Shown: positions 15,525 through 15,921 of the stretch, in pieces
Position numbering within the stretch: the first letter of the stretch is position 1
Layout of the letters: each line of letters opens with the position of its first letter
Assembly: GCA_016700135.1 (NCBI GenBank)
Contig: CP065004.1
Location: forward strand, 60,001-92,000
Source: Candidatus Saccharimonadota bacterium
GTDB taxonomy: Bacteria > Patescibacteriota > Microgenomatia > UBA1406 > GWC2-37-13
Direction: 5' to 3'
DNA: 32,000 nucleotides
Made by a program: the position numbers and the translations under genes
The notes under the pieces: generated by a model
Seen by the model: only the letters and a program-made list of their open reading frames with translations
What the model was told of the DNA's origin: nothing
Databases searched by the model: none

Positions 15525-15601
15525 TGAGCGGTGGAAGGGACTTCCCGCCTCAGCGGGATAAACTCCCCCTCGACCTCCCCGCCGTGGCGGGGCGTTCTAC
15601 C
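15525..15601 (-). other. pseudo-3'-portion of tRNA-Gly (D-loop to 3' end) with a replaced anticodon arm and an expanded T-loop
   Basis: The RNA reads GGUAGAACG, hairpin CCCCGC-CACG-GCGGGG, AGGUC, GAGGG, a 27-nt loop GGAGUUUAUCCCGCUGAGGCGGGAAGU, CCCUU, CCACCGC, U, CA. Three blocks are identical to the real tRNA: 15593-15601=15896-15904, 15567-15576=15869-15878, and 15525-15542=15847-15864. Confidence 0.65.
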
Positions 15602-15845
15602 GTTTCTTATCTATTAACTTTTTAAAACCCTTCCCGCCTTTATATGATTTGATTTGTAACTCTCTACGATAAGCTGTTGCTCTATCGGGATATTCTTCTG
15701 TATAGATCACAATAAAGGGACCTTTATTTTTTAATGAGTTGGTCTTATTGGAATTATGTTCGTTTAACCTACGTGGTAAATCGTTAGTAGAACCAATATA
15801 ATACTTGCCTGTAATCGTCGACTGAAGAATATAGACAGTATACAT
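15597..15845 (-). CDS. small GIY-YIG (URI-domain) nuclease
   Basis: The ATG at 15845 gives MYTVYILQSTITGKYYIGSTNDLPRRLNEHNSNK...YRRELQIKSYKGGKGF (GIY/YIG, R, E, N signature). The ORF-track extension to 15890 reads through tRNA-Gly and is rejected. Confidence 0.85.
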   Translation of the reverse strand: MYTVYILQSTITGKYYIGSTNDLPRRLNEHNSNKTNSLKNKGPFIVIYTEEYPDRATAYRRELQIKSYKGGKGFKKLIDKKR

Positions 15846-15848
15846 CTG

Positions 15849-15921
15849 AGCGGTGGAAGGGACTCGAACCCTCGACCTTCTCCTTGGCAAGGAGACGTTC
15901 TACCAACTGAACTACCACCGC
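15849..15921 (-). tRNA. tRNA-Gly(GCC)
   Basis: Hand fold:
- Acceptor 5' strand GCGGUGG, then UA
- D arm GUUC-AGUUGGUA-GAAC, then G
- Anticodon arm UCUCC-UUGCCAA-GGAGA
- Variable loop AGGUC
- T arm GAGGG-UUCGAGU-CCCUU
- Acceptor 3' strand CCACCGC, discriminator U. Confidence 0.9.

Follow-up and report, generated by a model that had tools for sequence, protein, structure and literature searches.

Two kinds of described system come close to the locus reported here. SegB is a GIY-YIG homing endonuclease whose gene lies within the tRNA cluster of phage T4; the enzyme recognises the T-loop motif GGTTCRANTCC and cleaves at the 3' ends of tRNA genes, and it is made only within the tRNA precursor, its stop codon being severed when the next tRNA is processed (PMC2330249). 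In fungal mitochondria, mobile open reading frames (ORFs) bring along a replacement for the end of the gene they enter, and the native end is pushed downstream, where it persists as an unexpressed duplicate, with hybrid-gene cases at atp6 in Allomyces and at atp6, atp9, cox2 and nad3 in Glomus, including a GIY-YIG ORF in atp9 (PMC3630166). We analyzed a 32,000-nucleotide (nt) stretch of the chromosome of a Candidatus Saccharimonadota bacterium (here called the window), in which an intact tRNA-Gly(GCC), a small stand-alone GIY-YIG nuclease gene and a remodelled partial copy of the same tRNA (the tail) follow directly upon one another. We regard it as fairly probable that this region is a selfish homing-type cassette living in a tRNA gene, a minimal cellular counterpart of T4 SegB and of the fungal mitochondrial mobile ORFs.

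The tRNA-Gly belongs to a minus-strand array, Ile(TAT), Phe and Gly(GCC), identified with ARAGORN, and the nuclease ORF is packed against it with almost no spacer. The ATG at 15845 lies 3 nt (CAG) past the discriminator T at 15849 (...ccaccgc t ca g ATG), and the TAG stop codon (15599..15597) falls within GGTAGAACG (15601..15593), the D-loop block of the tail. These junctions are as the first-pass annotation of this DNA had placed them, except that the ORF encodes 82 amino acids (aa) plus a stop and not the 83 aa given there. Tail and tRNA share exact repeats of 18 nt (15525-15542 = 15847-15864), 10 nt (15567-15576 = 15869-15878) and 9 nt (15593-15601 = 15896-15904). The anticodon arm has been swapped for CCCCGCCACGGCGGGG, with a 6-bp stem and a 4-nt loop, and the T loop measures 27 nt, again as first reported; the palindromes of the tail are CCCCGCCACGGCGGGG and TCCCGCTGAGGCGGGA, and the T-loop insert abolishes the motif GGTTCRANTCC. 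The whole insert is 322 bp, with the 82-aa ORF as its sole content. Hairpins of the form CCCGC..GCGGG occur twice in the 32-kb window, both times inside the tail, while shuffled sequences give 0.03. The motif AGTTTATSC occurs at 3 sites against 0.52 expected, all in expanded T loops (the Gly copy and two tRNA-Ser tails described below), a count only modestly above chance because 2 of 100 shuffles reached three matches. It had also been claimed that the ORF lacks a promoter of its own, and we found no sigma-70-like promoter 5' of the ATG on the minus strand, with the proviso that host promoters may not fit the consensus. No terminator-like site was found on the minus strand between the ORF and the next gene.

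This arrangement recurs widely. A scan of one genome per GTDB species, with an alignment of homologues, gave 329 related stretches and returned 80 loci; the counts that follow are drawn from 87 related ORFs in 80 other genomes, and several record titles among the 80 loci bear doubtful taxon labels. The hosts include many lineages of the candidate phyla radiation (CPR), Bacteroidales, Chitinophagales, Melioribacteraceae, Omnitrophota, Zixibacteria, Endomicrobiales, Lentisphaeria and others, and the related proteins form 4,921 clusters at 50% identity. If the unit is mobile, as the first-pass annotation proposed, then other GIY-YIG ORFs should likewise stand between a tRNA and a pseudo-half, and indeed, far from being never tRNA-linked, 77 of the 87 ORFs directly adjoin a same-strand tRNA. 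In 34 of these the tRNA leads, in 40 the ORF does, and 3 have a tRNA on both sides; the remaining 10 ORFs lie mostly at contig ends, by masked stretches or inside tandem arrays. Where the tRNA comes first, the gap is -1 to 9 nt in most CPR loci and 30-60 nt in Bacteroidales, in which it holds a terminator-like hairpin. Where the ORF comes first, its stop codon is often the tRNA's own U8-A9-G10, and the layout is a mirror form consisting of a scrambled 5' tRNA copy, the ORF and then the intact tRNA.

The tRNA-like segment is conserved along with the ORF, a point on which the initial proposal could have failed. The flank opposite the intact tRNA almost always holds a partial copy of that same tRNA, with perfect identity over a block of 10 nt or more in 31/36 and 32/39 loci and with GC hairpins in 35/36 and 39/39. 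Of 33 tails, 18 have a destroyed T-loop motif, as do 37 of 39 upstream halves; the idea that an intact T loop is a target that is universally destroyed was rejected as a rule, with 15 of the 33 tails keeping the motif. The family as a whole joins the ORF to no fewer than 20 tRNA species, in two mirror-image arrangements, and protein clades largely track tRNA identity, with some switches. Rfam searches at the gathering threshold (window plus 20 loci) and at E values up to 5 (this region) recovered tRNA only and no other structured RNA, ribozyme or CRISPR (clustered regularly interspaced short palindromic repeat) family, and our literature search found no description of an architecture that joins a tRNA, a GIY-YIG ORF and a hairpin-remodelled tRNA copy. 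In one related locus (L022, 1040-1810), an array of Arg, Ala, Ile, Phe and Gly tRNAs holds two GIY-YIG ORFs, one directly 3' of tRNA-Phe and the other ahead of tRNA-Gly in the mirror form; because tRNA order is shared with the window, both layouts apparently occur at the same tRNA-Gly locus.

Syntenic relatives, found by a metagenome scan with the neighbouring thymidine kinase, reveal what the locus looks like without the cassette. Four of them (L089, L093, L095 and L097, with a thymidine kinase 84-85% identical) carry a cassette-free tRNA-Gly(GCC) at the very position that the tail occupies in the window, so that the presence/absence polymorphism with precise junctions that the first-pass annotation had proposed as a check does exist. 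In L089, where tRNA-Gly(GCC) stands without a cassette alongside thymidine kinase and OmdA, 41 nt separate the tRNA from the ATG of OmdA; the corresponding distance for the tail in the window is 39 nt, and the flanks can be aligned. The cassette-free tRNA-Gly of L093 is identical to the window tRNA-Gly, and the closest relative, L001 (protein 94% identical), has the same cassette.

Two tRNA-Ser genes of the window are followed by tails that contain no ORF (Table 1), and the suggestion that these are ORF-less relatives of the Gly cassette is supported. The Ser(TGA) tail includes 21 nt that exactly repeat the 3' end of the tRNA and the adjoining flank, and in L171, a contig of the L001 assembly, tRNA-Ser(TGA) lacks the 107-nt tail and stands directly against the window's post-tail flank. 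Judged from these alignments, the displaced copy at both Gly and Ser(TGA) sits at the former position of the tRNA, and the repeat extends into the 3' flank. The predicted fold of the Ser(ACT) tail is no better than that of shuffles (z = 0.07). Similar ORF-less tails follow many Ser and Tyr tRNAs in the family loci, and tails of this kind also follow intact ORFs in L030, L061 and L012, with large T-loop insertions in L030 and L061. The motif AGTTTAYSC is common to the Gly tail, both Ser tails and the tails in L012 and L013.

Table 1. Features of the tRNA-Gly(GCC) cassette and of the ORF-less tRNA-Ser tails in the window
Feature	Position	Strand	Remarks
Functional tRNA-Gly(GCC), CCA not encoded	15848..15921	-	ARAGORN; Rfam tRNA 15849-15921, 73.3 bits; identical in L001, L093
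Stand-alone GIY-YIG nuclease ORF, 82 aa + stop	15597..15845	-	Pfam PF01541; TAG within tRNA-like tail
Remodelled tRNA-Gly copy (tail), 77 nt, D loop to 3' end	15525..15601	-	exact 9-, 10- and 18-nt blocks
GC hairpin CCCCGC-CACG-GCGGGG in place of anticodon arm (tRNA positions 27-43)	15577..15592	-	exact replacement
Expanded T loop, 27 nt, with hairpin TCCCGC-TGAG-GCGGGA (15558..15543) and AGTTTA before the hairpin	15540..15566	-	
Tail, 5' to 3': D-loop block			GGTAGAACG
Tail, 5' to 3': hairpin			CCCCGCCACGGCGGGG
Tail, 5' to 3': variable region + T stem			AGGTCGAGGG
Tail, 5' to 3': expanded T loop (27 nt)			GGAGTTTATCCCGCTGAGGCGGGAAGT
Tail, 5' to 3': T stem + acceptor 3' strand			CCCTTCCACCGCTCA
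ORF-less tail after tRNA-Ser(TGA)	11416..11522	-	hairpin CAGTGCT-GAAA-AGCACTG; T stem with ~39-nt loop containing AGTTTATCC
ORF-less tail after tRNA-Ser(ACT)	8214..8328	-	layout as Ser(TGA) tail; ends in 17-nt exact copy of tRNA 3' end

Some loci of the family bear signs of repeated invasion. Tandem ORF-plus-tail units or stacked displaced 3' ends are present in L012, L052, L061 and L070, with L012 showing a tail, then a degenerate ORF start, then a second tail. In L002, L007, L047 and L053, the acceptor strands of an upstream 5' pseudo-half and a downstream 3' tail pair with each other and not with the functional tRNA between them, and they are therefore the parts of an older tRNA into which a unit comprising an entire tRNA and the ORF was inserted. 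Direct repeats of 20-43 nt that contain the hairpin lie on both sides of at least 9 of 72 units, whose inner order is either tRNA-ORF or ORF-tRNA.

Both the ORF and the tail are under constraint. The ratio of nonsynonymous to synonymous substitution rates (dN/dS) is 0.085 between the window and L001 and 0.098 between L052 and L072, the two comparable pairs, and the ORF is thus under purifying selection. A comparison of the window with L001 shows a single difference across the 77 nt of the tail, against 27 at 171 third codon positions and 5 in the 39 nt of the adjacent spacer, and the 43 tail positions that are not copied from the tRNA hold 1 difference where ~7 would be expected (P ~0.006). 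The remodelled copy is therefore maintained and not decaying.

The encoded protein is little more than a GIY-YIG domain. Its Pfam match spans residues 1-68 (E = 4.9e-18, with 65.6 bits where the cut-off is 22.6), and Y5, Y16, R26, H30 and E62 are invariant among 30 homologues; from what is known of I-TevI and UvrC we take these to be the Tyr of GIY, the Tyr of YIG, the catalytic Arg and His, and the metal-binding Glu. The chain ends 14 residues past the catalytic domain, with no C-terminal DNA-binding domain (NUMOD, zinc finger or helix-turn-helix) on a linker. The match to TIGR01453 is limited to positions 3-39 (E = 4.5e-7, 30 bits, under the cut-off of 56), and the relatives in PDB are the UPF0213 proteins 1zg2 and 1ywl (phmmer E = 5.9e-7 and 3.8e-5) and also SLX1. 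An exact look-up of the ORF product returned no record, and homologues were used instead; the relatives listed among the representatives of 50%-identity clusters are nearly all short (57-214 aa). A phage collection gave distant matches only (40% identity, Rhizobium phages) and a library of defence systems a single weak homing-endonuclease match. Mechanical gene calling lengthens the ORF to a TTG inside the tRNA gene (97 aa, 15597-15890(-)), and the many database homologues of 100-130 aa with N-terminal extensions probably reflect the same artefact, with the call running into an upstream tRNA.

The GC hairpins of the remodelled copies follow a small number of types (CCCCGCC-N4-GGCGGGG, TCCCGCC-N4-GGCGGGA and TGCCGCC..GGCGGCA) and are inserted with precision. 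Exact replacement of the anticodon arm is found in Gly, Thr, His, Ile and Asp copies of other genomes, Bacteroidales Pro copies have a hairpin in place of the D arm, and Ser and Tyr copies carry a twin module, CCACCGCC..GGCGGGG followed by TCCCGCC..GGCGGGA, exactly inside the anticodon. This asymmetric twin module has a fixed orientation (29:3). The hairpins are ten times as frequent around the ORFs (2.35 per kb) as in other sequence (0.24 per kb). Covariation is seen in the stems (C-G with T-A, C-G with G-C) and free variation in the loops, and several hairpins are perfect 16-bp palindromes. When stem-mismatch types were compared with a view to RNA- versus DNA-level action, few G-T or A-C mismatches were seen. 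A role of the hairpins solely in chopping up repeat homology fits the window, with its blocks of 9, 10 and 18 nt, but was rejected because mirror-form Ser loci retain blocks of 36 nt.

We record several further observations on these hairpins. At the contig end of L173 (1-130, opposite strand), two 5' tRNA-Ser fragments lie side by side with the twin hairpin in the D loop of one only, and a GIY-YIG gene (2656-2928) is 2.5 kb away; the module can therefore occupy tRNA fragments that are not directly next to an ORF. The T-loop insert of the tail, GTTTATCCCGCTGAGGCGGGAAGTC (15539-15565(-)), shares 22 identities over 27 columns with the type I-E CRISPR repeat of Escherichia coli, GTTTATCCCCGCTGGCGCGGGGAACTC (L169, K-12 array), in an alignment with two single-base gaps and a stem that is one pair shorter. 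No other part of the window matches that repeat as well (score 15, against at most 12 in 30 shuffles), and the anticodon-arm hairpin (15577-15592(-)) ties for second with a score of 11, inside the shuffle range of 9-12. The opposite flank orientation is found elsewhere, as GCGGGATAAACT in L041 and GGCGGGGTAAACT in L068. A CRISPR array as such was rejected: regular repeat and spacer copies are absent, there are only two related hairpins, 11 nt apart and within tRNA sequence, and no CRISPR family of Rfam matched. Ten nucleotides of the 3' half of the anticodon-arm hairpin (CACGGCGGGG, 15577-15586) also equal positions 16043-16052 of tRNA-Phe, where they span the 3' strand of the D stem and the 5' strand of the anticodon stem, which may be coincidence.

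We hypothesize that the cassette is a unit of an intact tRNA-Gly, a minimal free-standing GIY-YIG gene and a partial tRNA duplicate that would keep the original downstream flank. The ORF, apparently without a promoter of its own, would be expressed from the precursor of the tRNA array, and trimming of the tRNA 3' end would leave an almost leaderless mRNA. By analogy with SegB, the nuclease may cut cassette-free tRNA genes near the T arm or the 3' end, and repair from a cassette-bearing copy, with tRNA sequence serving as homology arms, would then copy the ORF in and partly duplicate the tRNA. One tRNA copy would always be left intact, and the host would therefore suffer no loss. The redundant copy would be neutralised by the hairpins: with the anticodon arm replaced and the T loop expanded, it would have neither tRNA function nor the original target and would share only the 9-, 10- and 18-nt blocks with the live gene. 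Such neutralisation of the displaced copy is plausible. The initial reading of a minimal mobile cassette that leaves a functional tRNA intact is thus supported, as far as sequence comparison goes, by its recurrence, by the tRNA-like segment that travels with the ORF and by the empty syntenic relatives, and the likeness to homing endonucleases that was drawn with it has precedents in SegB, which sits in a tRNA cluster, and in fungal mitochondrial mobile ORFs with their duplicated gene ends.

Several points weigh against this reading. The protein consists of the catalytic domain only, without the DNA-binding domain on which the specificity of known GIY-YIG homing enzymes depends. Cleavage, the transcript and the gain event are deduced from the DNA and its relatives, and the empty sites could reflect loss instead of gain. 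The live tRNA of the window is identical to that of the cassette-free L093, and the escape of the occupied locus from cutting is not accounted for. The T-loop motif is still intact in 15 of 33 tails. The agreement of protein clades with tRNA identity would fit long vertical association as well. Finally, the near-invariance of the hairpins across phyla, their exact substitution for tRNA arms and the fixed orientation of the twin module suggest a specific role beyond simple homing.

The same hairpin properties are central to an alternative that we consider unlikely, in which the conserved GC palindromes, and not intact tRNA genes, are what the nuclease acts on, and serve as the ends of the element or as sites of recombination. 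In this reading, tRNA and ORF, with hairpin-cored tRNA segments at their borders, would excise as a unit and integrate into hairpin-bearing pseudo-tRNA landing pads in a manner reminiscent of integron cassettes with their attC hairpins, or of repetitive extragenic palindromic (REP) elements with their REP-associated tyrosine (RAYT) transposases. Conservation of the hairpin sequence across phyla and tRNA identities, the perfect 16-bp palindromes and the oriented twin module, placed at exact positions with no target duplication, all speak for it, as do the units described above with hairpin-containing direct repeats on both sides and either inner order; moreover, a protein without a DNA-binding domain could dimerise on a palindrome or recognise a cruciform as SLX1 does. 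However, most units, that of the window included, carry hairpins on one side only, no free, cassette-less landing pad bearing a hairpin was identified among the loci surveyed, and the duplication of tRNA ends plus flank is the outcome that break repair would have. We also know of no GIY-YIG transposase or recombinase.

We think it quite unlikely that the ORF is a host gene, that is, a small nuclease with a cellular role such as repair at highly transcribed tRNA loci, and likewise that the tRNA-like flank is an element for mRNA processing, stability or regulation, with presence and absence reflecting ordinary gene loss. In favour of such a gene, ORF and tail are under strong purifying selection, the ORF is always oriented with the tRNA and tightly packed against it, stable hairpins at mRNA ends act as stabilisers, and stand-alone UPF0213 proteins are widespread without obvious mobility. 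A host gene would nonetheless not explain attachment to at least 20 tRNA species in two mirror layouts, nor the tandem copies, the remnants of degenerate ORFs and the displaced tRNA ends stacked behind one another; close relatives lack the cassette although their flanks are otherwise conserved, and neither partial tRNA duplication nor the splitting of an older tRNA has an evident host purpose.

A two-component system, in which the hairpin-substituted tRNA fragment works, as RNA or single-stranded DNA, together with the nuclease and steers it to tRNA genes by means of a scaffold and of segments that match tRNA, strikes us as highly improbable. Co-transcription would be expected from the overlap or direct contact of the fragment with the ORF, the hairpins are conserved and covarying, the tRNA-matching blocks of 9, 10 and 18 nt are exact, the outer pseudo-tRNA of L053 and L047 matches an allele other than that of the carried tRNA, as a guide to uninvaded alleles would, and the protein has no DNA-binding domain. 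Nevertheless, the fragment is upstream of the ORF in half of the loci and downstream in the other half, the blocks of the window equal its resident functional tRNA and would make it self-targeting, the loops are not conserved, and an 82-aa domain is very small for binding RNA plus DNA; to our knowledge, no RNA-guided GIY-YIG enzyme has been described. It is also very unlikely that the fragment, as RNA or as extruded DNA, is a working partner that confers tRNA-gene specificity through hairpin handles and tRNA-matching segments, with L002, L007, L047 and L053, where the cassette has a complete and sequence-distinct tRNA of its own and splits the resident one, representing a natural cleave-and-rescue drive on an essential gene.

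We give almost no credence to the view that the tRNA 3'-end repeat is an old attachment-site duplication or a decaying tandem copy with the ORF as an unrelated passenger: integrative elements commonly duplicate tRNA 3' ends (PMC9897764), but this 322-bp insert has no integrase, and recurrence of the three-part layout in at least 70 independent loci together with a tail that is conserved and not decaying contradicts an integrase relic or chance duplication alike. A tRNA intron (group I or bulge-helix-bulge) was also rejected, as an uninterrupted 73-bit tRNA adjoins the ORF and no ribozyme family matched.

If the locus is indeed a homing-type cassette, there would be a large family of minimal selfish cassettes in the tRNA genes of many uncultured bacteria, and this family would explain many annotated "GIY-YIG nuclease family proteins", odd or partial adjacent tRNA calls and N-terminally over-extended gene calls. 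It would mean that an essential conserved gene can be invaded free of cost by always regenerating one intact copy. The conserved GC hairpins, which replace tRNA arms exactly and one of which resembles a type I-E CRISPR repeat, pose a tractable puzzle, and an 82-aa nuclease with a defined genomic niche is attractive for enzymology.

The surroundings of the cassette are of an ordinary chromosomal kind, with thymidine kinase, NUDIX, mevalonate-pathway enzymes and a sortase among the neighbours, and the chromosome was assigned to Candidatus Roizmanbacteria (CPR) through an identical protein recorded under this name. The same tRNA array carries a second kind of cassette, in which a 113-aa 23S-rRNA-intervening-sequence protein (PF05635, E = 1.6e-27; 11634-11975(-)) lies between tRNA-Cys and tRNA-Ser, flanked by arms rich in TTAGCT/AGCTAA. 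Arms of a similar kind, but with no ORF, occupy the Ile-Phe and Phe-Gly spacers of the window (15922-15998 and 16073-16153), spacers that measure just 10 and 13 nt in L001, and L093 (3160-3565) has a PF05635 ORF with arms between Phe and Gly. Two anticodons in the window are unusual for bacteria, namely Ser(ACT) (8329-8416(-), 53.6 bits) and Ile(TAT) (16154-16227(-), 68.1 bits), and the latter is conserved in L001, L022 and L093.

The general kind of element proposed here is already known, both as free-standing homing nucleases in tRNA clusters and as mobile ORFs that come with a duplicated end of a gene. What had no match in the literature searched is the location on a bacterial chromosome, an enzyme of 80 aa, the existence of two mirror layouts and the copies of the tRNA with hairpin substitutions. 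Elements that integrate into tRNA genes by means of tyrosine integrases resemble the cassette in the direct repeat of the tRNA 3' part (18 nt exact here, including the 3' end) and in leaving the tRNA functional, but the cassette has no tyrosine or serine integrase, measures 0.3 kb compared with 10-100 kb, has a repeat broken by hairpins and also occurs in a mirror form at the tRNA 5' end. At the level of the protein, the nearest likeness is to UPF0213/YhbQ proteins (1zg2, 1ywl) and the catalytic domain of SLX1, which are single-domain GIY-YIG proteins of about 80-107 aa; we know of no tRNA linkage or mobility reported for these proteins, and the literature searched held nothing on either. There may also be a likeness to TnpB of IS200/IS605 elements and to IscB (OMEGA), in which the 3' end of a nuclease gene overlaps a structured noncoding segment that runs into a target-like flank and, possibly as here, the nuclease promotes element retention or homing. 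Unlike TnpB and IscB, the cassette encodes no RuvC or HNH protein, a guide role for its flank is hypothetical, and that flank can stand on either side of the ORF.

The two systems with which we began remain the closest. Both T4 SegB and the F-Tfl enzymes of phage T5 are free-standing homing endonucleases in tRNA clusters, and SegB is of the GIY-YIG type (PMC2330249). Like the window ORF, SegB is encoded by a GIY-YIG gene that lies among tRNA genes, lacks its own promoter and is present in some relatives and absent from others, and the severing of its stop codon by the processing of the next tRNA has the same geometry as our mirror-form loci (PMC2330249). SegB differs in being described as a two-domain, I-TevI-like enzyme with a NUMOD3 DNA-binding motif (PMC2330249), whereas the window protein is an 82-aa catalytic domain; the sequence relation between the two is confined to the GIY-YIG core (TIGR01453, E = 4.5e-7, below the cut-off). 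SegB also resides in a phage genome and the window cassette in a cellular chromosome, and the abstract and discussion of its description mention for SegB neither a partial tRNA duplicate nor GC-hairpin substitution (PMC2330249). The fungal mobile ORFs share precisely the layout of gene, ORF and displaced gene end (PMC3630166). Their targets are protein-coding, with the ORF often in frame, and their enzymes are full length (PMC3630166). Their displaced copy simply diverges (PMC3630166), whereas that of the window has been remodelled with conserved hairpins.

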